Shown piece after piece: positions 21,729 to 60,542 of a stretch of DNA of 64,000 bases. How positions within the stretch are numbered: the first letter of the stretch is position 1; the number at the start of each line of letters is the position of its first letter. The stretch spans positions 113,577 through 177,576 of the forward strand of contig CBDANZ010000004.1 in NCBI GenBank assembly GCA_965197865.1, read 5' to 3'. A program made the translations under genes and the position numbers. The notes under the pieces were generated by a model. It made no database searches and had not been told where the DNA came from. It was given only the letters and a program-made list of their open reading frames with translations. Source of the DNA: Vicinamibacterales bacterium (GTDB lineage: Bacteria > Acidobacteriota > Vicinamibacteria > Vicinamibacterales > CAVVIG01).

Positions 21729-22088
21729 CCCCGCGCGTACGGGGGACACGTGACGACCCGACACGATCCATGTCGCAACCCCAGTCCATCCCCTCGCGGC
21801 CCAGGCCGACGGTTGGCTGCCAGGGAAGCGTCGAACGCACCGGACTGCGACCAGCGCCATGGTCCGCGTTGCGCCCAGTCGGCCGTGGTGCGGCGTCACC
21901 GAGCGCGACCAGGAAGTACAAAACCGGCGTGCATGGAGAAGTAGCCGCGCCTGACGGCTGCTGTGAAAACTACCGGTCGAGGTCATGTCCCCGGCTGCGC
22001 CTTGCGCCTTGAATAAGACTCTCAATTCGACCCTCCACGCGGTCCGGCCGGTCCCCGTCCTTCCGCTTTTTCTCAGCCTCGGGGTGGA

Positions 22089-24681: not shown

Positions 24682-25559
24682 ACGCGTGGCGACCGTCGCC
24701 GTCTGGTCAACCGGGCGAGCAGCAGCGGTTCTCGGATCTCGCGATCAGCACCACGTTGACACTCCGACTTGTCTTCCGTCTGCCCTTGCGCCAAGCGGAG
24801 GGCTTTGTGCGGTCGGTCCTCGCCTCGATGGACGTCGATCTCGAGGCGCCCGACCACACCACACTTTCTCGCCGGAGTCGGTACCTGGCCGTCGGGCTGC
24901 ACCGCGTCCCGGTCAAGGGGCCGATTCATCTCCTCGTCGATAGCACGGGCCTCTCGATCGCCGGCGAAGGTGAGTGGGCCCCGGCCAAGCACGGCGGTCG
25001 CGGCCAGCGCGGCTGGAAGAAGCTCCATCTCGGCGTCGACAGGGCGGGTGTGATCGTGGCCCACACGTTGACCGAGGCGACGGTCGACGACGCGACGACC
25101 GGTGTCGGTTTGATCGAGGCGCTCCACGCCGACCTCGCACGCGTCACGGCCGACGCGGCCTACGACACGATCGCGTTCTACGCGGCGGCCACGGCCCGGG
25201 ACGCAATCGTCGTGGTCCCTCCGAACAAGGCGGCACGGGTGTCGCGACGGAGACCACGGTCGAGCGCTCGGGATCGCACGATCCGGAAGATGAAGCAGAT
25301 CGGGCGCCGTCGGTGGAAGGCGGAGGCTGGGTATTATCGGCAGGCCCGCGTGGAGAACGCCGTCTTCCGGTACAAGTCGATCATCGGGGATCGCCTTCGC
25401 GCCCGAGCTCCCGGAGGGCAACAAGCCGAGGTGCTCATCGCGTGCCACATCTTGAATCAGATGACCGACCTGGGAAGGCCAGACTCGTACGCCATCGGCC
25501 GATGAAAGTCCCCTGGGTCGGGATCGTTCTGGGTGGGGTTCGATTCATGCACCAACGCC

Positions 25560-25844
25560 ACGTGGTGCTGATCGCGAGATCCGAGAACCGCTGCTGCCCG
25601 CCCGGTTGACCAGACGGCGACGGTCGCCACGCGTCCCGCGCATCGGCAGACAGCCACAGCGTCACGTCGCCTCGCTGGACCAGCGCTCGGTCGTATGCCG
25701 GCCAATTCCCGACGTGGTATTTCGTCTTGTACTTCGGTTGAACCCTCGACTTCATAGCGAGATCGTGCGCCACGGGCCCTCAACACGGCCAGGACCTCGA
25801 CGCTCGCCCACGGGCGCCAAGCTGAGGAGCCGTGCACCAACGCC
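25560..25844 (-). mobile_element. partial IS5 copy (left IR plus codons 1-66), inverted, abutting the right IR of the disrupted copy
   Basis: Encodes MAHDLAMKSRVQPKYKTKYHVGNWPAYDRALVQRGDVTLWLSADARDAWRPSPSGQPGGQQRFSDLAISTT and ends with GGAGCCGTGCACCAACGCC at 25844. Confidence 0.85.
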
Positions 25845-27421: not shown

Positions 27422-28750
27422 GGGGGTGTCAGAAATTTTGTGTGTGAGCTATTGCCGTTAGTTAGTCCCCCAGCCTGAATCGATCGCCGAACTGAATCGC
27501 GAATTGTACCCTGGCCGCCGCCCAGGCGACCGGGGGATTCTTCCACTTCGCCGTGAGATGGCGCAAGGCCAGCCAGATGAGTTTCGTGGCGGCCTCGTCG
27601 CTCGGGAAATGCCCTTTGTTCCGGATGCTCTTGCGCACGCCGCTGTGCAGGCTCTCGATCGCGTTCGTCGTGTACACGATCTTCCGCACGGCCGCGGGGA
27701 AAGCGAAGAACGGAATGATCCGGTCCCAGTGGCGCTGCCAGCTCTGGACCACGGTCGGGAAACGCCGTCCCCACTTGCCGCCTCCGAATGCGCCCAGCGC
27801 CTGTTCGGCCGTCGCGGCATCGTCGGCCTGGTAGACCGGCTTCAGAGCCTGAACCAAGGGCTTGCGGTCCTTCCAGGCCGCCAGGCGGATCGAATTCCGG
27901 ATCAGGTGCACGATGCAGGTCTGCACGATCGTGTCCGGGAACACGGCGGTGATCGCGTCGGGAAATCCCTGCAGCCCATCAACGATGGCGAGCAGAATAT
28001 CCTGCACTCCGCGGGCCTTGAGGTCGTTCATCACGCGCAGCCAGAACTTGGCGCCTTCGGTCTGCTCGATCCACAGGCCGAGGATGTCCTTGTGCCCGGA
28101 ACACCGCACGCCGATGGCCAGGTATACGGCCTTGTTGCGTACCAGGCCCTCGTCACGGATCTTGACCCGCAGCGCATCGAAGTACACGATCGCGTAGGTC
28201 GACTCCAGCGGCCGCGCCTGCCACGCTCGAACTTCGTCGATGACCGAATCCGTCACCACCGAAACGAGGTTCGGCGAAATCGCGATGCCGTAGAGCTCGC
28301 CGACATGCGCCTGGATGTCGCGCGTGCTCATCCCCCGGGCATACAACGCGACGATCTTGTCGTCGAACCCCGGAAATCTTCGTTGATACTTCCGGATCAG
28401 GGCGGGATCGAAGCGGCCGTGTCGGTCTCGGGGAATCGACAGCACCAGCTCGCCGTCGTCGCTGAGTACCGTCTTCCGGCTCGAGCCGTTTCGATGGTTG
28501 CCGCCGTCCTGCTCGGTCTCCCCACCGAGATGCACGTCCATCTCGGCGTTCAGCATCCGTTCGGCCAACGCCCTCTTCAGATCCCCTACCAGTCCGTCGG
28601 AGCGCAACACCGTCGCGGCGTCTTGCCCCTCCAGTAGTTCATCCAGCAGCTCGGCGCTAAACCTGGTCTCTTGCTTCTCCTTCGCCATACTCGCTCCTTC
28701 CCCTTTCGGGAGTCAGCATGGCTCACAAACACAAAATTACTGACAGGCTC
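27422..28750 (-). mobile_element. IS256-family IS, copy 3 (1329 bp) with 8-bp target duplication
   Basis: Same ends as copy 2. Direct repeat GAACACGC at 27414..27421 and 28751..28758. Confidence 0.95.
27462..28688 (-). CDS. IS256-family transposase, 408 aa
   Basis: Differs from copies 2 and 4 at two residues (GAFGGGKWGRR versus GAFEGGEWGRR). Confidence 0.95.
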   Translation of the reverse strand: MAKEKQETRFSAELLDELLEGQDAATVLRSDGLVGDLKRALAERMLNAEMDVHLGGETEQDGGNHRNGSSRKTVLSDDGELVLSIPRDRHGRFDPALIRKYQRRFPGFDDKIVALYARGMSTRDIQAHVGELYGIAISPNLVSVVTDSVIDEVRAWQARPLESTYAIVYFDALRVKIRDEGLVRNKAVYLAIGVRCSGHKDILGLWIEQTEGAKFWLRVMNDLKARGVQDILLAIVDGLQGFPDAITAVFPDTIVQTCIVHLIRNSIRLAAWKDRKPLVQALKPVYQADDAATAEQALGAFGGGKWGRRFPTVVQSWQRHWDRIIPFFAFPAAVRKIVYTTNAIESLHSGVRKSIRNKGHFPSDEAATKLIWLALRHLTAKWKNPPVAWAAARVQFAIQFGDRFRLGD

Positions 28751-30992: not shown

Positions 30993-31813
30993 GGATGTGT
31001 TGCAACTTTGGCTAGCGGCGGGCTGGTAGCCTGAAGAGATCATGAAGAAGGCAATCCGACCGGCAATTTTCAAGTGGCGACAGACGGCGCCGGAGCTGAT
31101 TCTGTGCGCCGTGCGCTGGTATCTGCGGTACTCACTCTCGCTCCGCGATGTCGAAGAGCTCCTCGAGGAGCGCGGCCTGCAGGCTGACCACACGACGGTC
31201 TGGCGATGGGTGCAGCGCTACGGGCCGGAACTCGAGCAGAGGCTGCGCCGGCATCTCAAGCCCACCAACAAATCCTGGCGTGTTGATGAAACCTATGTGC
31301 GGGTCAAGGGCGACTGGTGCTACCTGTATCGTGCTATTGATTCCACAGGCGCCACCATTGACTTCTTCCTGTCAGTGCTCCGCGATGCCGCGGCGGCCAA
31401 ACGGCTGTTTCGCAAGGCGCTCAGCGATCCATCACATCCGCAGCCCCGCGTCATCAACACCGATCAGGCCCGCCTCTACGGCGCGGCGATTCCAGCCGTG
31501 AAAGAGGAGGGAACACTGCGCTCCCGCTGCCGACATCGGCCAGTCCAATACTTGAACAATATTCTGGAGCAGGACCATCGAGCGATCAAACGCCGGGTGC
31601 AGGCTAAACAGGGGTTTCGCGAGTTTCACGCGGCGCGGCGAACCATCCAAGGATACGAGGCACTGCACATGATGCGGAAGGGGCAGGTGAGGTGGGTGAG
31701 CGGCTCGGATGTTTGGCGGCAGAATCAGTTCATCAACAGGCTGTTCGAGGTGGCTGCCTGAGACCTCGATCCCGAGCGGCCTCCGTCACCGTTTACGAAG
31801 TTGCAACACTTCC
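30993..31813 (+). mobile_element. IS6-family IS, type A copy 2 (~821 bp)
   Basis: IRs GGATGTGTTGCAAC (starting at 30993) and GTTGCAACACTTCC (ending at 31813). Confidence 0.85.
31042..31761 (+). CDS. IS6-family transposase, 239 aa (divergent paralogue of 9148..9867)
   Basis: Same length and motifs as the 9148 ORF, with scattered substitutions. Confidence 0.9.
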   Translation: MKKAIRPAIFKWRQTAPELILCAVRWYLRYSLSLRDVEELLEERGLQADHTTVWRWVQRYGPELEQRLRRHLKPTNKSWRVDETYVRVKGDWCYLYRAIDSTGATIDFFLSVLRDAAAAKRLFRKALSDPSHPQPRVINTDQARLYGAAIPAVKEEGTLRSRCRHRPVQYLNNILEQDHRAIKRRVQAKQGFREFHAARRTIQGYEALHMMRKGQVRWVSGSDVWRQNQFINRLFEVAA

Positions 31814-32121: not shown

Positions 32122-33209
32122 GGCGTTGGTGCATGAATCGAACCCCACCCAGAACGATCCCGACCCAGGGGACTTTCATCGGCCGATGGCGTACGAGTCT
32201 GGCCTTCCCAGGTCGGTCATCTGATTCAAGATGTGGCACGCGATGAGCACCTCGGCTTGTTGCCCTCCGGGAGCTCGGGCGCGAAGGCGATCCCCGATGA
32301 TCGACTTGTACCGGAAGACGGCGTTCTCCACGCGGGCCTGCCGATAGTACCCAGCCTCCGCCTTCCACCGCCGCCGCCCGATCTGCTTCATCTTCCGGAT
32401 CGTGCGATCCCGAGCGCTCGACCGTGGTCTCCGTCGCGACACCCGTGCCGCCTTGTTCGGAGGGACCACGACGATTGCGTCCCGGGCCGTGGCCGCCGCG
32501 TAGAACGCGATCGTGTCGTAGGCCGCGTCGGCCGTGACGCGTGCGAGGTCGGCGTGGAGCGCCTCGATCAAACCGACACCGGTCGTCGCGTCGTCGACCG
32601 TCGCCTCGGTCAACGTGTGGGCCACGATCACACCCGCCCTGTCGACGCCGAGATGGAGCTTCTTCCAGCCGCGCTGGCCGCGACCGCCGTGCTTGGCCGG
32701 GGCCCACTCACCTTCGCCGGCGATCGAGAGGCCCGTGCTATCGACGAGGAGATGAATCGGCCCCTTGACCGGGACGCGGTGCAGCCCGACGGCCAGGTAC
32801 CGACTCCGGCGAGAAAGCGTGGTGTGGTCGGGCGCCTCGAGATCGACGTCCATCGAGGCGAGGACCGACCGCACAAAGCCCTCCGCTTGGCGCAAGGGCA
32901 GACGGAAGACAAGTCGGAGTGTCAACGTGGTGCTGATCGCGAGATCCGAGAACCGCTGCTGCCCGCCCGGTTGACCAGACGGCGACGGTCGCCACGCGTC
33001 CCGCGCGTCAGCAGACACCCACAGCGTCACGTCGCCTCGCTGGACCAGCCCTCGGTCGTATGCCGGCCAATTCCCGACGTGGTATTTCGTCTTGTACTTC
33101 GGTTGAACCCTCGACTTCATAGCGAGATCGTGCGCCACGGGCCCTCAACACGGCCAGGACCTCGACGCTCGCCCACGGGCGCCAAGCTGAGGAGCCGTGC
33201 ACCAACGCC
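32122..33209 (-). mobile_element. IS5-family IS, intact copy (1088 bp)
   Basis: Ends GGCGTTGGTGCATGAATCGAACC (starting at 32122) and ..GGAGCCGTGCACCAACGCC (ending at 33209). Confidence 0.9.
32176..33138 (-). CDS. IS5-family DDE transposase, 320 aa
   Basis: GTG start. ..HLLVDSTGLSIAGEGEW..KLHLGVD..ADAAYD..RWKAEAGYYRQARVENAVFRYKSIIG.. Confidence 0.9.
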   Translation of the reverse strand: MAHDLAMKSRVQPKYKTKYHVGNWPAYDRGLVQRGDVTLWVSADARDAWRPSPSGQPGGQQRFSDLAISTTLTLRLVFRLPLRQAEGFVRSVLASMDVDLEAPDHTTLSRRSRYLAVGLHRVPVKGPIHLLVDSTGLSIAGEGEWAPAKHGGRGQRGWKKLHLGVDRAGVIVAHTLTEATVDDATTGVGLIEALHADLARVTADAAYDTIAFYAAATARDAIVVVPPNKAARVSRRRPRSSARDRTIRKMKQIGRRRWKAEAGYYRQARVENAVFRYKSIIGDRLRARAPGGQQAEVLIACHILNQMTDLGRPDSYAIGR

Positions 33210-33210
33210 A

Positions 33211-34962
33211 CTCGCCGACGCTGTGGCCAAGTCCCCCGGTGTTGGCGGACCGGAATGGGTCGCTGCAATTCACAAGATCGGGCAGATGCAACGAGAACGC
33301 TACGAGGCCGAGGAGGCAGAAATCGAGCAGCTTCGATCCGAAATCGCATACTGGTTGGAGGGGGAACGGTACGATCCCGCCGCCGGAGCTCCGCTTGAAG
33401 CCTTGCTTACCCGCACGCAGCGCGTCTCGGTTTGGGCGAGCACGCAATTCCACACGATGGAGGGTGAGGCCGAGGCTTCTCTGTTTGCGTCTGCCCATGC
33501 GCAGGCGGAGGCACTCCTGACGGAGCTCGCGGGGCTTCGAAAGGATGGTACCGAGCGCATCGCACGGCTTGCGCTCGAGCGACGGATCGACGAGGTGACG
33601 ACCGACGCACCGGACCCTTCCACGTACGAGGAGGCCGGTCACACAGGGGCGGCGATCTCACCTGCCGCAGTGACAAGTCCTTGGCCGATAGTGGTTTGGT
33701 GGAATCTCGCGCACGCGCCGACCGCCGTCTCGTGTCCTTGGTCGTCGCGCGAACTCGCCGCCCTGCTTGCGTCCGGGGTGCGACTGCCAGAGGTCGAGGA
33801 CACTATTCGCCGACACAGCCGGGAGTGGCTGAGACCGCTGTGCCATGCCACAGAACAGTGTGTCCTGGTCGTGCACGACGACGAACGCGGAGCGCACCCG
33901 TTATGGACGCGGATCGAGAGCCTTTTCGATGGGATCGAGATAGTCCAGATCGAGTCCTCCCTGGTCGGTGGAGATATGACACTCAAGACGCTTGAGGTGC
34001 CGACGCGAGTACTTCCGATTCAGGTCCTGCCCGCGCCACGACGGTGGTGGTCACTGCCGGACGATTGCGTCGTCGCGCCTCGTGAGGTCGAGTCCTACTC
34101 CAGTCTCTCGAAGCTCTGCGACTACCCGCACGAGTGGGTGTTGTAGTACGCCGCGCGGCTCCGAGCCGGGAGCGCCGCCGAGGTAATGGATGGCTCCCGC
34201 CTCTTTGGAACCCTCGGGCACCGACTCTTCGAAGAGTTCTTTCGGACGCGCGACGACTGGCGCCGGATGCAAGACGACAACGTGCTCGCCTGGGTGCGCG
34301 CAGAATTGCCCGGACTCGTCGAACGCGAAGGCGCGGTGCTGCTCGAGCCCGGGCGCGGAGTTGACCGCCAGCGAATCGCCGTCACCCTGGAGCGGGCCCT
34401 GGTCCGGCTTCTGGCACACCTCCGGTCGGCCGGAATCGTGCAAGTAACACCTGAAGCCTCCGGACAAGTGCCGTTCGCGGGACGCCACCTGACCGGTGCC
34501 ATCGACTTGGTGTTGGCTTGCGGCAACGGACACCGCACTGTTCTCGACGTCAAGTGGGCAGGCGAAAGCTACCGTCGGGGCTTGCTCTCCGAAAACCGCA
34601 TCCTACAGCTGGCCACCTACTCCTACCTACAGAAAAATCTGGATGGGAGCGAACGATGGCCTTCTGGGACGTTCTTCATCCTATTCACCGGCAATGTCCT
34701 CGCGAGCGATGGATCAAGTTTCCCGGATGCAATCGTGTCCTCGTCGAAGGACGGCGAAGGCGTAGCGAATCTTTGGGATCGTCTTCGACTCACGTACGAC
34801 TGGCGATGGGCGCAGTTGCAAAGCAGGCGGATCGAGGTCGTGACGGACCTCACGGCACCTAACGAGCAGTCGACTCCCCCAGAGGCGGGGCTCCGTCCGG
34901 TCACCGGTGGCGATCAGTACGACGACTACGTGCGCCTCACGGGGTGGGAGGACTCCCGATGA
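33211..34962 (+). pseudogene. AddB-like RecB-family PD-(D/E)xK nuclease protein; N-terminus lost to IS5, one in-frame TAG
   Basis: One frame from the IS5 boundary to 34962, apart from a TAG at 34144..34146. Nuclease motifs after the stop: GTLGHRLFE, GAIDLVL..LDVKWAG, QLATYSYL. The first ~325 codons of ORF 32233..34146 are antisense of IS5. Confidence 0.75.
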
Positions 34963-37900
34963 GCGGTAGTCAGAGAGATCTCGCGCACGTGCGCTTCATC
35001 AGTGCCGGAGCGGGGAGTGGCAAAACATATCACCTGACTGAGGAACTTGAGCAAGCGCTGTCCGATGGCAGGGCGATGCCCGCGGCCGTGATTGGCACGA
35101 CGTTCACGGTGAAGGCCGCCACAGAGCTTCACGACCGCGTCCGAACTCGACTGATCAGGAGCGGCCGGCCCCTGTTGTCTGAGCAGATGGCACAGGCGGT
35201 CATTGGTACCGTGCACAGCGTCTGTGGGCGCCTGCTCCGGCGGTTCGCGTTCGAGCTCGGGCTCTCGCCCGTGCTCAACGTCGCAAGCGTCGAGGATGGT
35301 GCGCGTCTCTTCAACCAAGCATTGGACGAGGTGCTGAGTGTGGACCGTGTTCGAGAGATGAACCTTCGCGCCGAGCGTCTTGGGCTCGTCGACGACCAGG
35401 ACGGAACAAGCTGGCAGGACCACGTGCGGAAGATCGCGGAGGAGACGCGAAGCAACGACATTGACCCGACCACCCTGCCGACGATGGGCCGCGAAAGCGC
35501 GCGCCGGTTTCTCAGCTATTTTCCGGAAGCAACTCGCAACGACGAGGTGCGGGAGGCGCTACTCGCGGCCGTTCAGGAAGCGATGGCGAACATCGACCTT
35601 GCGTCCGATGCCACCAAAACCACGCGCGATTATGTGAGCCGGCTACACAGCGCCGCGGCTGAACTCCGGCGTGACAACTGCCGTTGGACGCTTTGGATCT
35701 CGCTGAGCAAGTCGTCGCCGGCAAAGAGGAGCGAATTTGCTGCAATGTCGGTACGGGCCGCAGCCGCTTCCTATGACGGTCATTCGGGCTTTCACGCCGA
35801 CATACGCAGGTACATCGAAGGCGTTTTTGCGATCGCTGGGGAGGCTCTTTCCCGTTTCCAGAGCTTGAAGACCGAGCGCGGCCTCGTCGACTACGACGAC
35901 ATGGAACAGCTCGCGCTCCGAGCCCTCGACGAGCCCGCCGTGGCGGAACGTCTCAGCGACGAGGTGGATCTGTTACTCGTCGACGAGTTCCAGGACACGA
36001 ACCCAATGCAGCTCGCGCTCTTTATGAAGATTGCGCGCCTGGCTCACGAGGTGGTCTTCGTCGGAGACGTGAAGCAGGCCATCTTCGGTTTCCGGGGAAG
36101 CGACCCGGAGCTCGTGCGAGGCACGCTCGATGCCCTCGCCGCCTGCGGCAGCAAGCTCGACGTGCTCGATAGCTCCTGGCGAGCGCGGCCGTCGATTGTG
36201 CGCTACCTGAACGCCGTATTTGGTGAAGCCTTCGAACGCGACGGCATGGAACGCGCATCGGTCGAGCTATCACCCGAGCGCCAGGAGACTCACGACTCGC
36301 CAGCGGTAGTGCGTTGGACCCTCCCAAGGACGAGGAAAGTAGCGGAGCAGGCAGACGCTTTGGCACTCGCTATTCTCGAATTCAAGAGATCCGGACAACG
36401 AGTGAACGACCCGGAGACGAGAGACACGCGGGCTGTCACCTTCGGCGATATTGCGGTGCTCGCCACAACCAACGGTCACGTGCAATCCATCGCGAAAGCG
36501 TTGCGCGAACGACGCATACCCATGAAGATGACCCTGGCCGGGCTTCTCGAGACGCCCGAGGTGTGCCTTGCAAGAGCGTGCCTGTGCCGCCTGAACGACC
36601 CCGCCGACACCATCGCCACGGCCGAAATCCGGGTTCTGGGCTCCTGTGAGGAGCCGGAAGTTTGGCTCGCAGACCGGCTTCGCTGGCTCAAGGCTGAAGA
36701 GGAGGACCGGAGCTGGGCCGAGACCGACGATCCGATCGTATCGCGCATCGCACATTTGCGCGATTAGACGATTACCCAGTCCCCGGTCGAGATCGTCGCG
36801 CGAGTGCTCAACTATGTCGGTGTCCGCGCGATCTCGACTGCATGGGGACCTGATGCGATCACCGCCACCCAGCGCCAGCGCAACCTCGATGCCTTCCTCG
36901 ATTTGGCGGTCGAGTACGAGAATCACTGCGCGTCGCAACACGAGGCGGCGACCCTAACCGGCTTTCTGTTCTGGGTAGAGAATCCAACATCTCCGGCACT
37001 CGATCTGCAGCCGGTGGTGACCGGCGGCGACGCCGTCCACGTCCTGACCTATCATCGCGCGAAGGGCCTCGAGTGGCCAGTCGTCGTAGTAACTGACTTT
37101 CACTATACTTGGCGCTCCCAGATCTGGGACGTTCGCGTCGAGTCGACCTTGGACGAGCTCGATCTCGACAATCCCCTTAAGGGGCGGACCATCCGCTTCT
37201 ACCCAAATGTTTTCGGCAGAAACACCAAGAACGTTCCCGTTCTCGATGGCATCATGGAGTCGGAGGAGGGTGTTCGGGCGACTGCTGCAGTCGACGCCGA
37301 GGGACGCCGCTTGGCGTATGTAGGGATGACGCGGGCCCGGGACACGATCATCGTTGCCGTGCCGTCGTCGGCGCCGAGCGGAGATGCCTGGATCAAGAGC
37401 TTTACCTCCGACCACCTTCTTCCTGCTGGCGATGAACACCCGCTTCCAGGTGGCGAGCCCATCCCGTCGGCCGTCGTTGACTTGTCCGCAACCGACGTCA
37501 CGGTTCCCGCACCCACTCCGTTCACGCCAACGTGGTTCCTTGAACGCTCCCCGACCGAGCTTCGACTCCGCGAGCGGCTGAACCCCTCCGACGCCGGGCC
37601 CGCGGAGGGCGCCGCTGTAGGCAGTATCGTCGAGTTAGGGCCACGCCTTGCGGTTCACGGCGATGACATGGGGAGGATCGGCACCGCGCTCCATGCAGTG
37701 ATTGCCGCGGAGTTCGTGAATCCAGGCCGAGACGACGCAGTCGAATACGCAGCGTCCGTCATCCAGAATGCGGTCGGCGAGGAGGCGATGGCCCCGGCGG
37801 ACGCAATCGAATGTGCACGACGCCTCAGGGCGGTCCTTAACGCCCGGTTCGGTCCGCACCGCATCCTGGTTGAGCATCCCGTGAAGCTCGTCCAGAACAA

Positions 37901-38186
37901 TGGTCAGGTGCTCCACGGCTGGATCGACCTGCTCATCGAAACCGAGGCTGGGTGGATCGTCATCGACCACAAGTCCTCCCCGCGTCCGCGCTCAGAGTGG
38001 GCCGACGAGGCACTGGAACATTCGGGTCAACTCGCCGCGTACGCGAGCGCCCTAAGAGGTGCCGGTCTCGGATGCGCGGAATGTTGGGTGCACTTTCCGG
38101 TGAGTGGGGGGCTGGTGCAAGTCGTGCTCAACCGCGAGACTAACAGCGACAGGCCGCGAGCAACGTCCTTGCCGACAGCTCCATAG
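34944..38186 (+). pseudogene. AddA/UvrD-like SF1 helicase fused to a PD-(D/E)xK nuclease; one in-frame TAG
   Basis: Single frame with a TAG at 36765..36767. Motifs: AGAGSGKT, LLVDEFQDTNPMQ, VGDVKQAIFGFRGS, YHRAKGLEWPVVVV, YVGMTRARDTIIV. C-terminal nuclease: GWIDLLIE..VIDHKSS, QLAAYASAL. The start overlaps the upstream gene by 19 nt. Confidence 0.8.
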
Positions 38187-38311
38187 GCGTGCCGCGTCCT
38201 CCACCAGCAGGCTCATCTAGCGCCGCATACGGAAGAAGCGCGTTGGAGTATGACGGTGCCGAACTGGGTCGGCCAACATGGAAACCCAAATCAAGTCGAT
38301 AGAGTTAGACC

Positions 38312-39205
38312 ATGAAGAAATGCCTGTCCTGCGCAGAAAAGATCCAAGATGCGGCAGTTGTCTGCCGCTACTGCGGACGCGATCAACCCGGCACGGCCGG
38401 GGCGCTGCTGCCGAAGCCACCGAGTCCCGGCGTTGCTGCGGTTCTCAGTCTAATCATCCCTGGGGCGGGCTACATGTACGCGGGACGCGTCGGTGCTGGA
38501 CTCGCGCTGCTCGCCTTCACGATCGCCGGCTACGCCCTTTCTATTTTCCCAGGGGCTTTCATACACATCCTAGTGATCTTCGCTTCGATCAGAGCAGCGA
38601 AATCTAAGGGCCGCGTTCCGGTTGAGAGGTCTAATGATCGCGGCGTGGATGACTGGCCCGACCTACTCGATCGAGCCGACGTGCTCATTCTCGACACAGA
38701 GACGACCGGGTTTACGGATCAGTCGGAAGTGATCGATGTGGCGGTGCTCGACACTTGCGGAACGGTAAGCTTCGACCGGCTCAGCATGCCGGAAGGACGA
38801 ATACCAACGCAGGCCACAGCTGTCCATGGCCTCACGCGGGCAGACCTCAGGCGCCAGAAGGCTCCAGCCTGGCCTGAGGTCCACGATGACTTGGTGCGCG
38901 TGCTCACCGCAGCGACGATTGTGATCGCGTATAACGCCGATTTCGACTCGCGTTTGCTCCGACAGACCGCTGAGCGACATGGCCTGACTATGCCTGATCT
39001 ATCCTGGCGCTGCACGATGCTTGATTATGCGGCCCACGTGGGCGAGAAGTGGAAGAGCGGGCCCCACAAAGGGCAGTGTCGATGGCAGACACTTGAAGTC
39101 GCTGCGACGCGAGAGGGCGTGGAGCCTGCTGGCGCGCACCGTGCATTAGCCGATGCGAAGATGACACTTGGGGTTCTGCGAGCGGTGGCCGCGCCACAGC
39201 CTTGA
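38312..39205 (+). CDS. zinc-ribbon, two TM helices and a DEDDh (DnaQ-like) 3'-5' exonuclease, 297 aa
   Basis: CLSCAEKIQDAAVVCRYCG; TM segments VAAVLSLIIPGAGYMYAG and LALLAFTIAGYALSIFPGAFIHILVIF. Exonuclease motifs LILDTETTG, AYNADFD, HRALADA. Confidence 0.8.
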   Translation: MKKCLSCAEKIQDAAVVCRYCGRDQPGTAGALLPKPPSPGVAAVLSLIIPGAGYMYAGRVGAGLALLAFTIAGYALSIFPGAFIHILVIFASIRAAKSKGRVPVERSNDRGVDDWPDLLDRADVLILDTETTGFTDQSEVIDVAVLDTCGTVSFDRLSMPEGRIPTQATAVHGLTRADLRRQKAPAWPEVHDDLVRVLTAATIVIAYNADFDSRLLRQTAERHGLTMPDLSWRCTMLDYAAHVGEKWKSGPHKGQCRWQTLEVAATREGVEPAGAHRALADAKMTLGVLRAVAAPQP

Positions 39206-39360
39206 TGTACGGTCTCAAAGCCGCTGAACTACCCCGTACTTGGCCAGATCCGCCAGCATCGGATTCGACAGTGAGATCGCGCTGATTCGATTTTTGTAAA
39301 GTCAAGATGACCTTGCACAAACACAGAGTATGAGCTTATCGGTATGAAAACAATGTCGCT

Positions 39361-39369
39361 CCCCCCCCC
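39361..39369 (+). repeat. C9 homopolymer between ATG 39344 and the helicase reading frame
   Basis: CCCCCCCCC read directly. ATG 39344 is 50 nt upstream of the ORF-track TTG start at 39394 (50 mod 3 = 2). Confidence 0.9.
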
Positions 39370-39671
39370 AACCACGAGCTGCCGACAGATCTTTTGGCTC
39401 GAGAGGATTTTCTGTTTCGCGAGGACAACACTCCCTCTCTCACCGATATACAGTGGGATGCACTGAGCGCTGGAGTCGGCCGTGGGGAAAGCGTGCTCGC
39501 TCTGGCGCCGACATCGACTGGAAAGACACAGATCGGCATCTGGGCTTTGGCCTCATGGCTGGTCGGCGATAGGGCTCGGCGTCGCGCCGTCTATCTGGTT
39601 ACGCATCGCAGCCTCGCGAAACAAGAATTCGAAGACTTTCAGCGCATCCTCCTTGGTTCTTTGTTTGCCGG

Positions 39672-41070
39672 GAGTGAGTGCTAGTCTCAGTTGAAATTCG
39701 GGTGGCGACCCCGTATAGGAATGAGCGTTCCACCAAGAACGGCACATTCCAGGAGGTCACCACCCAGGGCGCGCAAAGTACGACAGATGCGAGGAAAAGG
39801 AAACCACATCGGCCTGGTGCCGGTACCGTCGATGGCGGCCCCGGACCTGGACACGCGCATTGCGTTGATCCAGGCGCTGATTCCGGTGGCGCTCGAGAAG
39901 GTGCACGTCGAGTGGCAGGCCGATGTGGAGCGGCTCGCTGGCGAGCGGTATGTGCGGGAGGGCCGGCGGCTGGGCCACGTGCGCTGGACGGCGCAACGGG
40001 GGTCGATTTACTTGGCCGATCAGAAGATTCCGCTCGCGGTGCCGCGGGTGCGCGATCGCCTGCGGAACCAGGAGGTGCCGCTGCCCACCTACGAGCAGTT
40101 GCAGGCACCGCGCACCCGCGACGCCGGGCTGCTGCACAAGGTCCTCGGCGGCTTGTCCACCCGAGAATACGAGCGGTGCGCGGAGGCGGTCCCGGAGGCC
40201 TTCGGCTTGAGCGCCTCGACGGTGTCGCGTCGCTTCAAGCGGGCCAGTGCGCGAAAGCTGCAGGAACGGCTGGAACGGCGCCTCGACCGCGACGACGTGG
40301 TCGCCCTGCTCCTCGACGGCAAGACGTTCGCGGAGGATGAGAGGGTCGCGGCCGTCGGCATCACGATCACCGGGGAGAAAGTGCTCCTCGGGTTCGTGCA
40401 AACGGCCACCGAGAATCGGAAGGTCTGTGCGGCATTCCTCCGCGAGCTCGTGGACCGCGGGCTGCGCACGGACCTCGGCCTCCTCGTCGTGACCGACGGC
40501 GCCAAAGGGTTGCACGCGGCGGTCCGCGAGGTGTTCGGGACGGCGGCCCGGCTGCAGCGCTGTCAGTGGCATAAGCGCGAGAATGTCCTGGCCTATCTTC
40601 CGGAGCGTCACCGGCCGACCCTGCGCCGGAAGCTGCAGGCGGCGTATGAGCAGCCGACGTACGAGGCCGCCAAGCGCGCGCTGGGAAAGGTCCGCGCCGA
40701 ACGGGTCCTTCTCAATGCCTCCGCAGTGGCAAGCTTGGACGAGGGCCTGGAGGAGACGCTCACCCTTCATCACCTCGGCGTCTTTCGCAAGCTGGGCACG
40801 AGCTTGAAAACGACCAGTGCGCTCGAGTCGATCCACGCCCGTGTCGAGAGCCGTATCGCCAAGGTCGATCACTGGAAGAACAGCGAGCAGAAGCAGCGCT
40901 GGTTGGCCACCGCATTGCTCGATCTCGAGCCGCGGCTGCACCGCATCAAGAACTTCCGAGCGCTGCCCTTGCTGCGTGTCGCATTCACGCGACAGATCGA
41001 AGGAATGAAGAAGTCGGCGGCGTAAACCAGAGGGTCGTCACAGAATGTCAACTACGAATGGCATTGACTT
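39672..41070 (+). mobile_element. IS256-family IS, type 3 (1399 bp) with 8-bp target duplication
   Basis: Ends GAGTGAGTGCTAGTCTCAGTTGAAATTCGGGTGGCGACC.. and ..GGTCGTCACAGAATGTCAACTACGAATGGCATTGACTT. Direct repeat TTTGCCGG at 39664..39671 and 41071..41078. Confidence 0.88.
39691..41025 (+). CDS. IS256-family transposase (type 3)
   Basis: 444-codon ORF (ATG 39787 is the likelier start). LLLDGKTFAEDERVAAVGITITGEKVLLGF, CQWHKRENVLAYLP, TTSALESIHA. Confidence 0.88.
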   Translation: MKFGWRPRIGMSVPPRTAHSRRSPPRARKVRQMRGKGNHIGLVPVPSMAAPDLDTRIALIQALIPVALEKVHVEWQADVERLAGERYVREGRRLGHVRWTAQRGSIYLADQKIPLAVPRVRDRLRNQEVPLPTYEQLQAPRTRDAGLLHKVLGGLSTREYERCAEAVPEAFGLSASTVSRRFKRASARKLQERLERRLDRDDVVALLLDGKTFAEDERVAAVGITITGEKVLLGFVQTATENRKVCAAFLRELVDRGLRTDLGLLVVTDGAKGLHAAVREVFGTAARLQRCQWHKRENVLAYLPERHRPTLRRKLQAAYEQPTYEAAKRALGKVRAERVLLNASAVASLDEGLEETLTLHHLGVFRKLGTSLKTTSALESIHARVESRIAKVDHWKNSEQKQRWLATALLDLEPRLHRIKNFRALPLLRVAFTRQIEGMKKSAA

Positions 41071-42274
41071 TTTGCCGGCGCCTCGGACGCAATGGTCCTG
41101 TCTACCGGAGACCGACAGGTCAATGCCAATGGCGCAGTCGTCAACGAACCGCTTCGCGCCAGTCTTCTTGTTGCGACTTACGAGAAATACCTCGGCCTCT
41201 TCTGCGGCGGTGGCATTCCCAGCGATCTTCGCGATACGTGTATTGTGGCCGACGAGATCAACATTCTTGGTGACCAGTCTCGCGGTGTACATGTTGAAAC
41301 GCTTCTCACCCTGCTTCGCCAAGGTCGACCAGTGCAGTTCATTGGGCTTTCTGCTGTTCTCACTGAACAGGACGGCCACAGTCTTGCCGATTGGTTACAC
41401 GTGAAGCTTGTCCGTGTAACACACCGAGAGAAACACCTTCGCTATGAGTGTCGCACACCGACGACGCGATTCACTTTTCACACTGGAACACCTGGCGAAG
41501 GTATTCGTGATGAACGCGTGGGGCCTGGGATGGCAACGGATCCGCACGCTCTAATCAGTGAATGCATGAGCGGGAACGACGGTAAACCTGTCGTTGTTTT
41601 CTGTATGAGTAAGAGGGAGATGTACAGTGGTTGCCGGACATATTGTCAATCACACGATATTCCCCTGGAGGGTGCGCCGTTGCTTGAAGGACTTAGCATG
41701 GACACACCCGAGGCTGCATTACTGTCAGCCACGATGCCTCACGGGGTCGCCATTCATTGCGCGGACCTGGTGGAAGCCGATCGGTTAAAGGTCGAGGAAG
41801 CACTTAAGGCTCACGAAGTCAACTTAATCTTCGCCACATCAACATTAGCTGCGGGGGTAAATGTCCCACTTGGAACGGCCATTTGTTATTCATGGAAGCG
41901 CTGGAATTGTGATCGCCGGTGCTACGAGCCCATCTCGGCTGGCGAATTTCACAACATGGCTGGGCGTTGTGGCAGGATGGGAACCGAGCATGAACACGGC
42001 CACGTGATCTTTCTCGCAAATGACGGATATAGCGATCAGATCGCGATTCAGACTTTTCTCAATCCGGATCACCTGGACAGCTTAGACAGTCACATCTCGC
42101 CGGATCATTTCACGCCGCTCGTGCTCCAACTGGCAGCGTCCAACGTGGTGAGTACAGAGCATGATGCGCTGACCTTTCTGAAGGCCACGTTCGGCGCTTC
42201 ACGGGAACTGGAGGTCAATGCTGCTGGTCTTGCTCATTGGGATGCGCCGTTTCGGGAAGTCGTAGCTGAACTTC

Positions 42275-42990
42275 GTGGCTGGACGTTTCTCAGATGACCC
42301 CACCGTCGAGCAGGCTCTCCGTTACGCCAATCGGGGTGTCGTTGCTCAGTCTGTCCTCCATCCGCGTAGCGCGATTCAGTTAATCGAATATACCGCACGC
42401 GGCGCGAACGATTTGCTCGCCTTGACCAATTCCGAGACAGACGAGCAAACACTTCGCTACGCCCTTCTGCACGCGGCCTATTCGTCCGACGAGTACAGCA
42501 ACCGCGGCGGCGACAAAGTGCTGCCTTGCCAGCTCGATCCCATTGTCCAGAACGATCTCGCAGTTCAAGCTGAACCCTACCTGATCGAGCATCCATGGGT
42601 GCGCAACCCTAAGTCGGCAAATGCGGCACTGCTGGCCATGCGATGGGCCAAGGGCGAGCCAAGGAATGCACTTTCTCCTGAGTTTCAGACAATCGGTTCT
42701 GGTGTCCTGCAGACCATGTTCCGGGAGGGTAGAGAGATTCTATTTGCCTTGTCTGATTGCCTGATCGCTGGCACGGCTCCGCATCTTACCGATGCAGACC
42801 GTCCAGAAGTGTGCCGTGGCAACGCTGACTGGCTTCGAGATCTGCGCAATTTGGCTTCCGTCATCCGTACACAAGCCATCCCACTTGTCGAAGGTCTCCC
42901 AGGTGAAGTGACGTGGCTTGCCAGGTTGACCGTTGGAGGCACTGGCCTGCGGCTCTTGTCGAGGACCGCCATCATGGCGTTGTTCACTAA
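42275..42990 (+). pseudogene. continuation of the Ski2-like helicase (WH/ratchet-like region) in another frame, 3'-truncated by an IS407-type element
   Basis: GTG 42275 overlaps the helicase stop by 23 nt. ..ALRYANRGVVAQSVLHPRSAIQLIEY.. reads like the post-RecA2 region of Hel308-type helicases. The ORF runs into the IS IR at 42991. Confidence 0.5.
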
Positions 42991-43016
42991 TGAGGGGCTC
43001 CGGCTTTTTCGGACCA

Positions 43017-43835
43017 CTACGCGGGTGAGTCCGCAGCCGTTGTCATCGTTCGCCGGGCGTATTCATTAGGGCTGAGCCCCTTGAGAGCCCGGTGAGGATG
43101 ATTCTCATTGTAGTCCCACCGAAACGCGTCGATCTTCTGCTGCGCGTCCTCGAGCGACGCGAACCAATGCACGTTCAGACATTCCTCCCGGAACCGCCCG
43201 TTGAACGATTCGATGGTGGCGTTGTCCGTGGGCTTGCCGCGCCGGCTGAAGTCCAGGATGACGCCGTTGGTGTAGGCCCAGCGCTCCATCGCCGAGCTGA
43301 CGAACTCGGTCCCGTTGTCGCAGTAGATCCGTTGGGGCAACCCGCGCTCGAATCGGAGATGCTCCAGCGTCGCCGCGACATCCTGTCCGCGAAGGCCCTG
43401 TTCGACCTCGATCGCCAGGCATTCGCGGGTAAACAGGTCTATGACGGTGAGCGTCCGGAAGCGGCGGCCGTCGGCCAGCTCGTCCGCCACGAAATCCATG
43501 CTCCAGATATCGTTGCGGGTCATGGCTGGCCGTCGCTGCTCGTGATGGCCGGCCGTCGCGTGGCGCCACGGGCGCTTCCGCCGGAGCGCTAGGCCTTCCT
43601 CGATGTACACGCGATAGAAGCGCTCTTTGCCGACGTCCCAGCCTTCGCGCCGCAGCAACACCAGCAGCCGGCGATAGCCGAACCGGACGCGCGCCTGGGC
43701 CAGTTCGTGCGCCCGCTGACGCAGAGCCGTGAGCGGATCCTTCCGGCGCGTGTAGTACACCGATGACCGCGTCGTCTTCACGACGCGGCAGGCGCGGCGG
43801 ATGCTCACGCCGTAGCGGCCCATCAAATACTGCAT
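43017..43835 (-). CDS. IS3-family transposase OrfB (rve core)
   Basis: WSMDFVADELADGRRFRTLTVIDLFTRECLAI, YCDNGTEFVS, KPTDNATIESFNGRFREECL. Confidence 0.9.
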   Translation of the reverse strand: MQYLMGRYGVSIRRACRVVKTTRSSVYYTRRKDPLTALRQRAHELAQARVRFGYRRLLVLLRREGWDVGKERFYRVYIEEGLALRRKRPWRHATAGHHEQRRPAMTRNDIWSMDFVADELADGRRFRTLTVIDLFTRECLAIEVEQGLRGQDVAATLEHLRFERGLPQRIYCDNGTEFVSSAMERWAYTNGVILDFSRRGKPTDNATIESFNGRFREECLNVHWFASLEDAQQKIDAFRWDYNENHPHRALKGLSPNEYARRTMTTAADSPA

Positions 43836-43858
43836 GACCTCACGCTGTTTGACGGGCT

Positions 43859-44164
43859 TCAGAACTTTTTTTCGACGACATCCTGGAGCATGACCTTGTC
43901 CAGGGACAGGTCGGCGACGAGACGCTTGAGCTTCGTATTTTCGTCCCGCAGTTGTTTCAGCTCGCGGGCCTCACTGGGCAGCATGCCGCCGTATTCCTTC
44001 TTCCAGCGGTAGAACGTCTGCTCGGACACGCCGACCTGGCGGCAGACGTCCCCGACCGGTACCCCGGCCCCGACCTGCTGCAACACGCCGGTGATCTGCT
44101 CGACGGAAAAGCGCGTTCTCTTCACGGCACACCCTCCTGGCCGATCGGCCTGATTGTGCCGCAA
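43859..44164 (-). CDS. IS3-family transposase OrfA (HTH plus leucine zipper)
   Basis: RTRFSVEQITGVLQQVGAGVPVGDVCRQVGVSEQTFYRWKKEYGG and ELKQLRDENTKLKRLVADL. GTG 44125 is a likelier start than TTG 44164. Confidence 0.88.
   Translation of the reverse strand: MRHNQADRPGGCAVKRTRFSVEQITGVLQQVGAGVPVGDVCRQVGVSEQTFYRWKKEYGGMLPSEARELKQLRDENTKLKRLVADLSLDKVMLQDVVEKKF
43865..43872 (-). promoter_or_regulatory. A AAA AAG slippery heptamer for -1 programmed frameshift (orfA-orfB fusion)
   Basis: The coding strand reads GTC GAA AAA AAG TTC TGA. A -1 slip gives ..KKVLKPVKQREVMQYLMGRYG.., continuous with orfB. Confidence 0.75.
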
Positions 44165-46033: not shown

Positions 46034-46879
46034 TCACGCGGCGACGGGTAGCAGCTCAAAACAATGACGCGGCGACGACCCCGGCGATCGATCAACGAAT
46101 CTTGGTTCATGGTTCCCCCAGAGAGCGCCGAGGCGCGCCCATACGGCGATGAAGACAGCCAAGACGCCTGCGGCGCGGCCCTGCAAGCGCCGTGGCGTGC
46201 CGATGCCGAGGCACTGGCGCATCGCGAGCCCCAAGTTGAAGCCGCCGCCATGAATCAGTAGACGCTTCAAGATGTTGTCGTGTCCCCGCAAGTGCGTGCG
46301 TCGCATCCCGCCGGTCTCATAGAGGTGGGCAAACGATCGCTCGGCGAGTTCCGCCCGTCGCCGCCGCAAGCGTCGCCCGCGGGCGCCCCGGAGACGGCGG
46401 CGATTCCCATGGACGGGCGCGTACGCATCCGGCGCGTCGGACCAATCGCGCCGGCCACGGTCGGGTTCCGAAATGTACGACCGCAGGCCCACCGCAGCCA
46501 GGTCTACCATCGTCTCGTTGCTGTGATAGCCCTTGTCCGCGACGATGTCCTCCAACCTCCCGCGCGCGTCGGTCGTCGCGTGCGCGGCTTCCACCTGTTC
46601 GGCCGCCGTGATCGCCGCCGTGACAAGCGTCCTCGTGTCGCCCTGATCGGCGCCCTGCACCGTCACCGCGACCAACGCGCCGCTCTCCAGATCGATCGCA
46701 TGCTCGGCTTTGTGCGCCAAGTGCGTCTGGCCGTCTTTCATTTTCGCGACCTTCGCATCAGGATCGCTGGGGCTGGTCCACTCGCTGTTCGAGGTTTTCT
46801 TCTTCCGCGTGCGATCAAACCGCGCCAAGACTTCGCGCGTCGGCGTCTTGATCCCCGAGGCGGCGGCGAGGCGGGTCAG
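46034..46879 (-). pseudogene. IS1182/IS5-type DDE transposase, C-terminal part, cut by IS3 copy B
   Basis: IVADKGYHSNE and AERSFAHLYETGGMRRTHLRGHDNILKRLLIHGGGFNLGL. The N-terminus is missing at the 46880 boundary. Confidence 0.75.
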
Positions 46880-46921
46880 TGAACCGTACCGGGTTTCTCG
46901 GAGACCTCATTACTTGGGAGG

Positions 46922-47251
46922 ATGGGGTCTATGGGACGTCCAAGTCGGTTTTCTCCGGAGGTGCGTGAGCGCGCGGTTCGAATGGTCGAGGAGCATCGCG
47001 CCACCCACGCGTCGGAGTGGGGCGTGTTGCAGTCGGTGGCGCCGAAGCTTGGCTGCACGGCCGAGACGCTACGGAAGTGGGTACGCCAGGCACAGCGTGA
47101 CGCCGGCTATCGCCCAGGGTTGACGACGAGCGAGCGAGAGCGCCTCAAGGAACTGGAGCGCGAGGTTCGCGAGCTGAAGCGGGCGAACGAGATCCTGCGG
47201 AAGGCGTCCGCGTATTTTGCCCAGGCGGAGCTCGACCGCCGCGGGAAGTGA
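46922..47251 (+). CDS. IS3-family transposase OrfA
   Basis: Protein identical to 5695..6024. Confidence 0.9.
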
Positions 47252-48144
47252 TGGTTCGCTTCATTCACGACCATCGGGATCAGTACGGGGTCGAGCCGAT
47301 CTGCACCGTGCTGCCGATCGCCCCCTCGACGTATCACCGCCATCGGGCGGCGCAGGTCGATCCGACGCGTCGCTCGGCCCGGGCACAACGCGATGATGCG
47401 CTGCGCCCGGAGATTCAGCGGGTGTATGACGAGCATCATCAGGTGTACGGGCCGCGCAAGGTCTGGAAACAGCTGCGTCGCGAAGGGTTCTGCGTGGCAC
47501 GAGGCACGGTGGGTCGGCTGATGCGGGCGATGGGCCTGGAAGGCGCGGGGCGTGGGCGCGCGTGGATCACGACCACGCACGCGGGCAATGGCAGCCGGCC
47601 CGCAGATCTCGTCGATCGCCAGTTCGTGGCGACCCGTCCGAATCAGCTCTGGGTCTCAGACTTCACCTACGTGGCGACCTGGGGTGGGTTCACCTACGTG
47701 GCGTTCGTGATCGACGTCTTCGCGCGGCGCATCGTGGGCTGGCGGGTGTCGGCCTCGATGCGCACGGACTTCGTGCTCGACGCCTTGGAGCAGGCCATCT
47801 ATGCGCGCCGCGGCGACGCGCTGACCAGCCTCGTGCATCACAGCGATCGCGGCACGCAGTATCTTTCGATGCGGTACACGGATCGTCTCGCGGCCGCCGG
47901 CATTGCGCCATCGGTCGGGAGCCAAGGCGATGCGTTCGATAACGCCCTCGCCGAGTCGGTGATCGGACTCTACAAGACGGAGGTGATTCGACGACGAGGG
48001 CCGTGGCGCACGCTCGAGGCCGTGGAATTCGCCACGCTGGAGTGGGTGGATTGGTTCAACATGCGGCGGTTGCTGGGACCGATTGGAGACGTGCCGCCGG
48101 CGGAGTTTGAAGCGCAGTACTATGAGCAGGCCAAGGTGGCCTGA
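47248..48144 (+). CDS. IS3-family transposase OrfB
   Basis: Protein identical to 4802..5698. Confidence 0.9.
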
Positions 48145-60492: not shown

Positions 60493-60542
60493 GACCTCCA
60501 GGCTGGGCTGCAGCGACAACCGGCCCCTGACGCGATAAGCCG

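Follow-up and report, generated by a model that had tools for sequence, protein, structure and literature searches.

Several described systems join a helicase to a nuclease. AddAB of B. subtilis (PDB 3U44, 4CEJ) is encoded by a two-gene operon with overlapping genes, in which a superfamily 1 (SF1) UvrD-like motor carrying a RecB nuclease is partnered by a non-motor, helicase-like subunit with a second RecB nuclease and four iron-sulfur cysteines. Mycobacterial AdnAB (PDB 6PPU, 7SJR, 9NP6) consists of two UvrD-like/RecB-nuclease subunits and has no iron-sulfur cluster. UvrD-Cas4-like (PF12705) fusions found near type III restriction-modification (RM) and WYL genes were described as likely ancillary components of defence (Hudaiberdiev et al., 2017, PMC5704561). 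Among superfamily 2 (SF2) helicases, Hachiman (HamA and HamB; PDB 8VX9) pairs a Ski2/Hel308-like helicase with a PD-(D/E)xK nuclease, while the Hna defence protein of S. meliloti is SMa2245 (PMC12445080; Hna also PMC13381803). Here, we focus on a decayed group of helicase and nuclease genes at positions 33210 to 42992 of a 64,000-nucleotide stretch (hereafter the window) of a Vicinamibacterales genome (contig CBDANZ010000004.1). A preliminary description, made from the window alone, had presented these genes as a candidate four-gene system directed against mobile genetic elements (MGEs). We consider it likely instead that the region is a wrecked accessory cluster of three independently moving and functioning units, inactivated by insertion sequence (IS) activity and point mutations.

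The strand shared by all genes and their proposed domains were recovered with Pfam, but the number of genes rises from four to five (g1 to g5). They fall into module A (g1 and g2), module B (g3) and module C (g4 and g5), and are laid out in the window as follows.

32122..33209 (-): IS5-family element, left boundary; its transposase open reading frame (ORF), 32176-33138 (-), matches DDE_Tnp_1_5 and DDE_Tnp_1
33210..34962 (+): g1 remnant, 583 of ~909 codons, AddB-like with a C-terminal RecB-family PD-(D/E)xK nuclease (Pfam)
34959..38186 (+): g2, 1075 codons, AddA-like SF1 UvrD-type helicase with a C-terminal RecB-family nuclease (Pfam)
38312..39205 (+): g3, 297 aa and intact; DEDDh 3'-5' exonuclease with a zinc ribbon at the N-terminus and a hydrophobic membrane segment (Pfam, PADLOC)
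39344..39671 (+): 5' part of g4, Hel308-like helicase (DNA comparison with L085, L093 and L097; Pfam DEAD)
39672..41070 (+): IS256-family insertion in g4, 1399 bp (Transposase_mut, E 1.5e-32; junctions placed against the uninterrupted L085)
41071..42297 (+): 3' part of g4, with the natural end of the 513-aa helicase at TGA 42295-42297 (~513-aa relatives; 93% nucleotide identity to L085)
42294..42992 (+): g5 remnant, second half of a split Hel308-like protein, ratchet region (alignment to g5 of L085 and L086)
42993..44164 (-): IS3-family element, right boundary, 44164 not being a mapped end; ORF 43017-43835 (-) matches rve, rve_3 and HTH_21

Assembly of the Cluster in One Lineage

The relatives of each module show which genes keep company. 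Module A was sampled in 12 loci of other lineages (L001-L007, L087, L088, L126-L128) with g1 identities of 26-92% and flanks of 7-10 kb, which include rhizobial, Variovorax and Methylocystis plasmids as well as Desulfocapsa, Chitinilyticum and Planctomycetaceae genomes. The g1 gene lies directly upstream of g2 in all 12, and g3, g4 or g5 was found within the flanks of none of them. Module C behaves in the same manner. The g5 part directly follows a g4-like helicase, usually fused to it, in 27 of 28 metagenome loci, the other (L118) ending inside the helicase. Neither g1, g2 nor g3 was found near the g4 relatives in any of the 28, nor in L086, L089 or L090, and across the 28 loci no neighbour is conserved, the helicase alone being so. 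In L086 (68-70% identical), a split g4+g5 pair stands on its own. For module B, relatives of the g3 exonuclease domain at 50-55% identity are solitary genes in ordinary chromosomal settings.

The order of all five genes was found only in L085 and L093-L097, contigs with 95-98% nucleotide identity to the window in which the lesions are different each time; in L085, an IS lies between g2 and g3. Homologues of the genes thus essentially do not co-localise outside one near-identical lineage, an outcome that the preliminary description had itself named as speaking against its proposal. Base composition also differs between the modules, with a G+C content of 63-64% for g1 and g2, 61% for g3, 54-57% for g4 and 57.5% for g5, compared with 63.6% for the window. 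The stretch had been called richer in A+T than its surroundings, which is clearly true of g4 and g5 and slightly so of g3, but not of g1 and g2. Taken together, the locus surveys, L086, the g3 copy in L092 (see below), the solitary exonucleases, the distribution of the five-gene order and the composition say that independent units were brought together a single time, in one lineage. With the modules apart in every locus of A and C sampled outside this lineage and unlike in G+C content, the proposal of a single four-gene system was not upheld.

Module A, a Predicted AddAB-Class Pair

The g1-g2 pair appears to belong to the AddAB class as a distinct clade rather than an equivalog, judged by sequence for g2 and by a predicted fold for g1. 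For g2, Pfam finds UvrD-helicase (3e-45), UvrD_C and PDDEXK_1 (5.6e-11), in agreement with the earlier view of a UvrD-type helicase fused to the second PD-(D/E)xK nuclease of the locus. Intact relatives number more than 100 (55-92% identity, ~1060 aa), and the best PDB match of the family profile is B. subtilis AddA (3U44_A, E 4.5e-47), ahead of PcrA, AdnB and RecB. The addA models of NCBIfam align to a g2 relative almost end to end, although the scores of 183-185 bits do not reach the addA/recB cut-offs of 708-861.

The relationship of g1 was less readily seen. Pfam recognises its nuclease domain (PDDEXK_1, E 3.6e-14), beyond which no sequence match was found in PADLOC, NCBIfam or PDB, and a g1 relative gave no match to NCBIfam addB at E<=0.001. 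A shallow g1 alignment searched against PDB sequences returned nothing, and a deep profile gave only marginal matches to the nuclease domains of AdnA and AdnB (E 0.0015-0.004). As the sequence searches against PDB were empty or marginal, a comparison of folds was needed. An AlphaFold (AF2) model of the family, built from 32 diverse members, reached a predicted local distance difference test (pLDDT) of 90.5 and a predicted template modelling score (pTM) of 0.81. With it, Foldseek retrieved the AddB chain 4CEJ_B as best match (E 2.3e-20, TMq 0.59), followed by AdnA (E 9e-15) and RecC. The AddB type proposed for gene 1 is therefore supported by fold and the AddA/UvrD type of gene 2 by sequence. 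Searched against 1.84 billion representatives, the family-specific middle region of g1 was found in 766 clusters at 50% identity, and almost all of these proteins are 870-930 aa long.

Invariant nuclease residues are kept in both families (D746, D760-x-K762 and Q780..Y784 in g1; D992, D1005-x-K1007 and Q1026..Y1030 in g2), and the nucleases of both are predicted to be active. No invariant or near-invariant cysteine exists among the 32 diverse g1 sequences, and the iron-sulfur staple of AddB is consequently absent; nor was a Walker A motif seen in the family. In the mechanism that we infer, g2 would supply an SF1 3'-5' motor and one RecB-type nuclease, and g1 would be an AddB-like partner without ATPase motifs that carries a second RecB-type nuclease. 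Their complex may load on double-stranded DNA ends, unwind them and degrade both strands.

Plasmid records with the pair number 38, for the most part rhizobial, and conjugative plasmids account for 25 of them; one copy was located in a variable region that follows glmS downstream. Its neighbours comprise toxin-antitoxin pairs, AbiE, multiubiquitin (ubiquitin-like)/ThiF genes, RM genes, SIR2, PLD, WYL regulators and IS elements. A megablast search of the locus against plasmids gave no match, and a scan of viral contigs for the g1 family found nothing. With g2, a tblastn search of phages gave one full-length match at 37%, the record being an unannotated 'Bacteriophage sp.' entry. On a Bradyrhizobium plasmid, a supposed 'DEDDh third gene' proved to be a false lead, the gene annotated '3'-5' exonuclease' being the C-terminal half of a split g2 homologue. 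Intact, clonable pairs exist on pRL4b1 of R. leguminosarum (HA460_RS35820/25) and in Variovorax WDL1 (E5P1_RS33805/00).

Two kinds of neighbour recur among eight distant loci. Regulators with helix-turn-helix (HTH) and WYL(-WCX) domains are near the pair in four of them and SbcCD-like nuclease/ATPase genes adjoin it in three.

L005:5703-6704, L006:2544-4397, L088:4359-5261, L127:2851-3768: HTH-WYL(-WCX) regulators beside distant g1-g2 pairs
L007:11806-16013, L087:12272-19164, L128:13744-17015: SbcCD-like genes beside distant g1-g2 pairs

PafBC and DriD are examples of WYL regulators that govern DNA-damage responses, and others control BREX and CBASS. The presence of SbcCD-like genes beside g1-g2 raises the possibility of a combined cassette for DNA-end processing. 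In Chitinilyticum, the WYL regulator by the pair is fused to a SIR2 domain.

Module C, a Putative Split Hel308-Like Helicase-Nuclease

The preliminary description had read gene 4 as a Ski2/Hel308-like SF2 helicase with an internal frameshift. The first part of this reading holds. Pfam finds DEAD (1.6e-16) and Helicase_C, and a PDB profile search with the module C helicase gives 2ZJ2 at E 8e-47. The frameshift is instead a gene boundary, since the closest g4 relatives (~513 aa, about 40 clusters at 55-89% identity) end exactly at the TGA at 42295-42297 of the window and a separate gene, g5, comes next, overlapping by ATGA. This g5 encodes 456-458 aa in L085 and L086, and its ATG lies at 42294 in the window. 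More distant relatives (37-46% identity) are single proteins of ~965 aa which span both g4 and g5. From these alignments and a structural model, g4 and g5 appear to be the naturally split form of a ~965-aa Hel308-like helicase with a C-terminal PD-(D/E)xK nuclease.

The model of a fused relative, P0183 of B. pseudomallei (pLDDT 84, pTM 0.77), was compared by Foldseek with Hjm/Hel308 chains, giving a TMt of 0.82-0.85 and E values of 4e-33 to 5e-30. Its residues ~835-935 form an alpha-beta-beta-beta-alpha-beta core, and P850, D851 and E865-x-K867 are invariant in 24 sequences of the fused family. Such a core with these residues is characteristic of PD-(D/E)xK nucleases. Where g5 is intact, in L085 and L086, it carries the corresponding GAPDF...ELK motif, which the window copy has lost. 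The earlier parts list of two helicases and three nuclease domains was right as far as it went, but the intact form is richer, with g5 contributing a fourth nuclease domain. By analogy with Hna or Hachiman, module C would act as a DNA-sensing or translocating helicase coupled to a nuclease effector.

The fused gene was found in three mobile settings. In a prophage, it lies between the terminase/portal genes and a Prim-Pol primase; in B. pseudomallei, it marks the edge of an integrative element with integrase and Prim-Pol; and on a conjugative plasmid of Cereibacter, it is next to the relaxase gene. An intact, clonable example is Cereibacter p.D D0Z66_21755. Such positions resemble the typical cargo placement of defence genes, and the predicted architecture parallels that of Hna and Hachiman. 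In B. pseudomallei, a DUF3800 protein follows the fused helicase-nuclease (L090:11020-12102, L091:3462-4544), and the surrounding element contains a tyrosine integrase and a Prim-Pol/D5_N primase.

Module B, a Predicted Membrane DEDDh Exonuclease

The g3 protein matches Pfam RNase_T at E 3.5e-15 and PADLOC DEDDh at 3.4e-27. Its catalytic motifs are intact, with ExoI DxE (LDTETTG), ExoII D (YNADFD) and ExoIII Hx4D (HRALADA). The earlier assignment of a zinc ribbon, a membrane region and a DEDDh exonuclease was confirmed, with the zinc ribbon weak in Pfam. The zinc-ribbon/membrane module (38312-38600) recurs with other C-terminal domains in P0339, P0340, P0349 and P0354, and one protein that shares it carries PF08797, which we take to be HIRAN. 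As judged from these proteins, the segment looks like a portable membrane anchor. The product of g3 would be a membrane-anchored DEDDh 3'-5' exonuclease, tied to the other genes in this lineage only; that it might trim DNA entering at the cell envelope is a weaker addition to our proposal.

Outside the co-linear contigs, a g3 copy at 91% identity lies between IS copies in L092. TIR_2, GmrSD_N and RecD2-like genes are present there, and neither a g1-g2 pair nor a close g4-g5 pair was found; a distant (32%) Hel308-nuclease paralogue is 3.5 kb from the g3 copy. The region L092:3703-14950 has the look of a defence island, in which a 947-aa Hel308-like helicase with HTH_61, TIR_2, GmrSD_N, a RecD2-like helicase and IS are interleaved.

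Decay of the Window Copy

The window copy of the locus is dead. Lesions were mapped by DNA alignment to the near-identical contigs L085 and L093-L097. As had been noticed at the outset, every gene except the exonuclease carries one, so that g3 is the sole intact gene of a fossil locus; the alignments add further lesions in g1, g4 and g5. Conversely, g3 is frameshifted by a 4-nt duplication in L093-L097. Intact relatives of the island genes do exist elsewhere, as was anticipated (for example g3-g5 of L085, g1-g2 of L093 and the many g2 relatives).

The g1 gene starts at the IS5 junction. The IS5-family element of the left boundary removed its first ~325 codons of 909, a loss that had gone unreported, and the remnant is 95% identical in nucleotides to the intact 909-aa gene in L093. 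The left limit of homology to intact relatives falls at 33206-33211. The IS5 end at 33209, already given in the preliminary description, is common to two further copies in the window. Two in-frame TAGs had also been noted and are present, one in g1 at 34144-34146 and one in g2 at 36765-36767. Relatives have CAG (Gln) at both sites, and the family consensus of g2 has Gln. Read-through or recoding of both TAGs was considered and is unnecessary, as each arose from CAG by a single C-to-T change and the locus bears five lesions besides. The start of g2, previously thought to overlap g1 by 19 nt, is the ATG at 34959 with a 4-nt ATGA overlap.

The start of g4 is ATG 39344. Just behind it, at 39361-39369, a poly-C tract reads C9 where L085, L093 and L097 have C7, resulting in a +2 frameshift; slipped-strand variation or a long-read homopolymer error could account for it. 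The gene is then interrupted by the IS256-family element, with an 8-bp target duplication, TTTGCCGG, at 39664-39671 and 41071-41078, which agrees with the insertion and duplication described before. In g5, there is a 1-nt deletion after 42335, and the cut at 42992 has taken the last ~223 codons, including the nuclease domain. This cut is the right limit of homology to intact relatives (L085), where an IS3-family end (TGAGGGG...) begins; an IS boundary had been recognised here, and the element starts at 42993. The two small indels (the C9 tract of g4 and the 1-nt deletion of g5) could be assembly errors, with C9/C7 alone sitting in a long homopolymer. The IS insertions and the TAGs are not of the assembly-error type.

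Insertion sequences are densely packed in the window. One of the IS256 family, whose transposase has 408 aa, is found in three copies at 23415-24641 (+), 27462-28688 (-) and 56677-57903 (-). The IS5 family is represented several times, IS3-family elements, an IS6 (IS240-type) element and others are also present, and further IS regions are at 24682-25844, 31042-31761, 46034-48144 and 62683-63666. A 649-bp fragment at 59847-60494 is 99% identical to the interior of the element that interrupts g4, which thus has, if only in fragmentary form, a second location in the window. Such a load suggests a genome in IS expansion, and this would explain the piecemeal decay of the locus. Elsewhere in the window, a 1312-aa protein at 18087-22025 (-) has five Calx-beta repeats and an autotransporter beta-domain; L001 likewise has a Calx-beta protein near its g1-g2 pair.

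Alternative Readings

If all five genes formed one multi-component anti-MGE system, the helicase-nucleases and the exonuclease would be expected to act jointly. The shared strand, intergenic gaps of only 125 and 138 nt and a gene order repeated in L085 and L093-L097 are consistent with this, as is the g3 copy of L092 with its distant Hel308-nuclease paralogue nearby. However, co-linear loci at 95-98% identity reflect one ancestral juxtaposition, and everything else in the surveys separates the modules, from the absence of the others around g1-g2 and g4-g5 (also in L086, L089 and L090) to the IS that parts g2 from g3 in L085, the solitary relatives of the g3 exonuclease and the unlike G+C contents. 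A single system is thus very improbable and already largely refuted. Several points nevertheless count against three independent units with a part in defence. The five-gene order persists across several genomes of one lineage, and the proximity in L092 may reflect some functional link between g3 and Hel308-like helicases. The sampling is modest, with about 34 loci for module C and 12 for module A, and the scan of a genome collection matched generic UvrD motifs, mostly in unrelated UvrD, PcrA or AddA, with L005-L007 as the useful loci among the matches listed. Moreover, the SbcCD-like neighbours and the WYL regulators could mean that module A serves repair rather than defence.

This last point leads to the reading of module A as an accessory cassette for double-strand-break processing or recombination, an extra AddAB that is often accompanied by SbcCD, placed under WYL-type regulation and at the service of the host or the plasmid. 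The AddA/AddB-like folds with two nucleases predicted to be active, the SbcCD-like genes adjoining the pair in three loci and the HTH-WYL-WCX regulators adjacent or close to it in four fit such a role. On the other hand, many of the neighbours are of kinds that typify defence islands (toxin-antitoxin, Abi, RM, SIR2, PLD and ubiquitin-like genes), the pair is mobile and patchily distributed (a Tectomicrobia protein and a gammaproteobacterial one share ~75% identity), and it is dispensable here, being pseudogenised. A repair cassette is a possibility to be taken seriously, if not the one we would favour. The island company and the mobility put defence slightly ahead for module A, and present associations do not separate the two roles. 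That g1-g2 would be the housekeeping AddAB of this organism is hardly credible. The architecture and folds are AddAB-like and one source names the relatives 'exonuclease V beta subunit', but the scores of g2 stay far below the NCBIfam cut-offs, g1 has no addB match and lacks the AddB iron-sulfur cysteines, both genes are pseudogenes in the window, and the relatives are on accessory rhizobial plasmids and in variable islands with different neighbours in every locus.

For modules A and C, seen as units of a wrecked accessory cluster, a role as accessory anti-MGE or DNA-end-processing systems would be plausible. We propose only tentatively, and with more doubt than confidence, that g1-g2 is an unrecognised mobile AddAB-like system which destroys linear invader DNA, perhaps as a back-up of RecBCD/AddAB under phage inhibition, and that the Hel308-PD-(D/E)xK protein, fused or split, provides a novel form of single-protein defence, an analogue of Hna and Hachiman unrelated to them in sequence. 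Neither helicase-nuclease module matched a named defence system in PADLOC v2.0, and PADLOC-DB v2.0, the release searched rather than newer catalogues, has no model for g1 or g5. Full-text searches of the literature gave no name for an AddAB-like defence system of two genes, nor for a defence protein of the Hel308-nuclease kind.

Comparison with Known Systems

A tempting false lead is hereby removed, as no new four-gene system is hidden in the window. In its place are two large, unstudied families of helicase-nucleases which travel on plasmids, prophages and variable islands and of which intact, clonable examples exist. If module A acts in defence, it would be a case of a classic end-resection machine repeatedly co-opted as mobile immunity, and the Hel308-nuclease fusion would add a helicase-nuclease solution unlinked by sequence to Hna or Hachiman.

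Complete Gabija, Hachiman or DISARM systems had been judged absent from the locus, and PADLOC agrees. There is no match to GajA among the locus proteins, and g2 matches GajB models over the generic UvrD core only; for DISARM, there are no PADLOC matches to DrmA, DrmB or DrmC and no methylase gene in the locus. With AddAB, module A shares the two-gene operon with overlapping genes, an SF1 UvrD-like motor joined to a RecB nuclease in g2, a non-motor helicase-like fold with a second RecB nuclease in g1, and both nuclease motifs. It differs in that g1 has no match to AddB at the sequence level, has none of the four iron-sulfur cysteines and is of ~900 aa as opposed to ~1160 aa for AddB; the equivalog cut-offs of NCBIfam are missed, and the module is carried by plasmids and islands, not the core genome. 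The subunit composition and the lack of an iron-sulfur cluster are also reminiscent of AdnAB. However, AdnA retains ATPase motifs, while no Walker A was seen in the g1 family, and the similarity is weaker than that to AddB. Lastly, g2 has the same domain fusion as the UvrD-Cas4-like proteins, with WYL regulators and RM genes nearby. Those fusions are stand-alone or linked to type III RM or Dcm/Vsr, and an obligate AddB-like partner of ~900 aa was not described for them (PMC5704561).

For module C, the closest fold is that of archaeal Hel308/Hjm (PDB 2ZJ8, 2P6R). It can be superposed on the N-terminal ~700 residues of the fused protein (E 4e-33), the RecA1-RecA2-winged helix-ratchet-helix-loop-helix arrangement is present, and the Hel308-type models of NCBIfam align with scores below their cut-offs. 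In contrast to Hel308/Hjm, module C is bacterial and MGE-borne, has an additional C-terminal nuclease module of ~250 aa, and in the window lineage is split into two genes near residue 513. With Hachiman, it has in common a Ski2/Hel308-like helicase paired with a PD-(D/E)xK nuclease, but places this nuclease after the helicase, at its C-terminus or downstream, and not in a separate upstream gene. Matches to HamB reach E 4e-29 in PADLOC while covering only 100-430 residues, a part of both model and protein, and E 3.9e-15 in PDB, far weaker than Hel308. Neither PADLOC nor Pfam gave a match to HamA/DUF1837 in g3, g5 or the fused C-terminus. With HamA missing and the HamB matches partial, module C would not be Hachiman.

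Hna would be the nearest functional analogue of module C. Like the fused form, it is a single protein on mobile elements in which an SF2 helicase at the N-terminus is joined to a PD-(D/E)xK nuclease at the C-terminus. Hna SMa2245, on pSymA (L129:17345-19882 (-)), matches the PADLOC candidate PDC-S28 end to end (positions 1-828 of 831, E = 0), and this equivalence is a cross-reference possibly useful to others. To the same model, module C shows a weak local match of ~55 residues at the nuclease motif (E 6e-5 to 1.6e-3). The hhalign probability is 35% and covers helicase motif I only, the helicase of module C is Hel308/Ski2-like, and tblastn found no similarity, so that the two are not the same system. 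All things considered, modules A and C do not constitute a categorically new system. They are of the AddAB/AdnAB type and of a Hel308-nuclease kind, respectively, the latter analogous to Hna and Hachiman.

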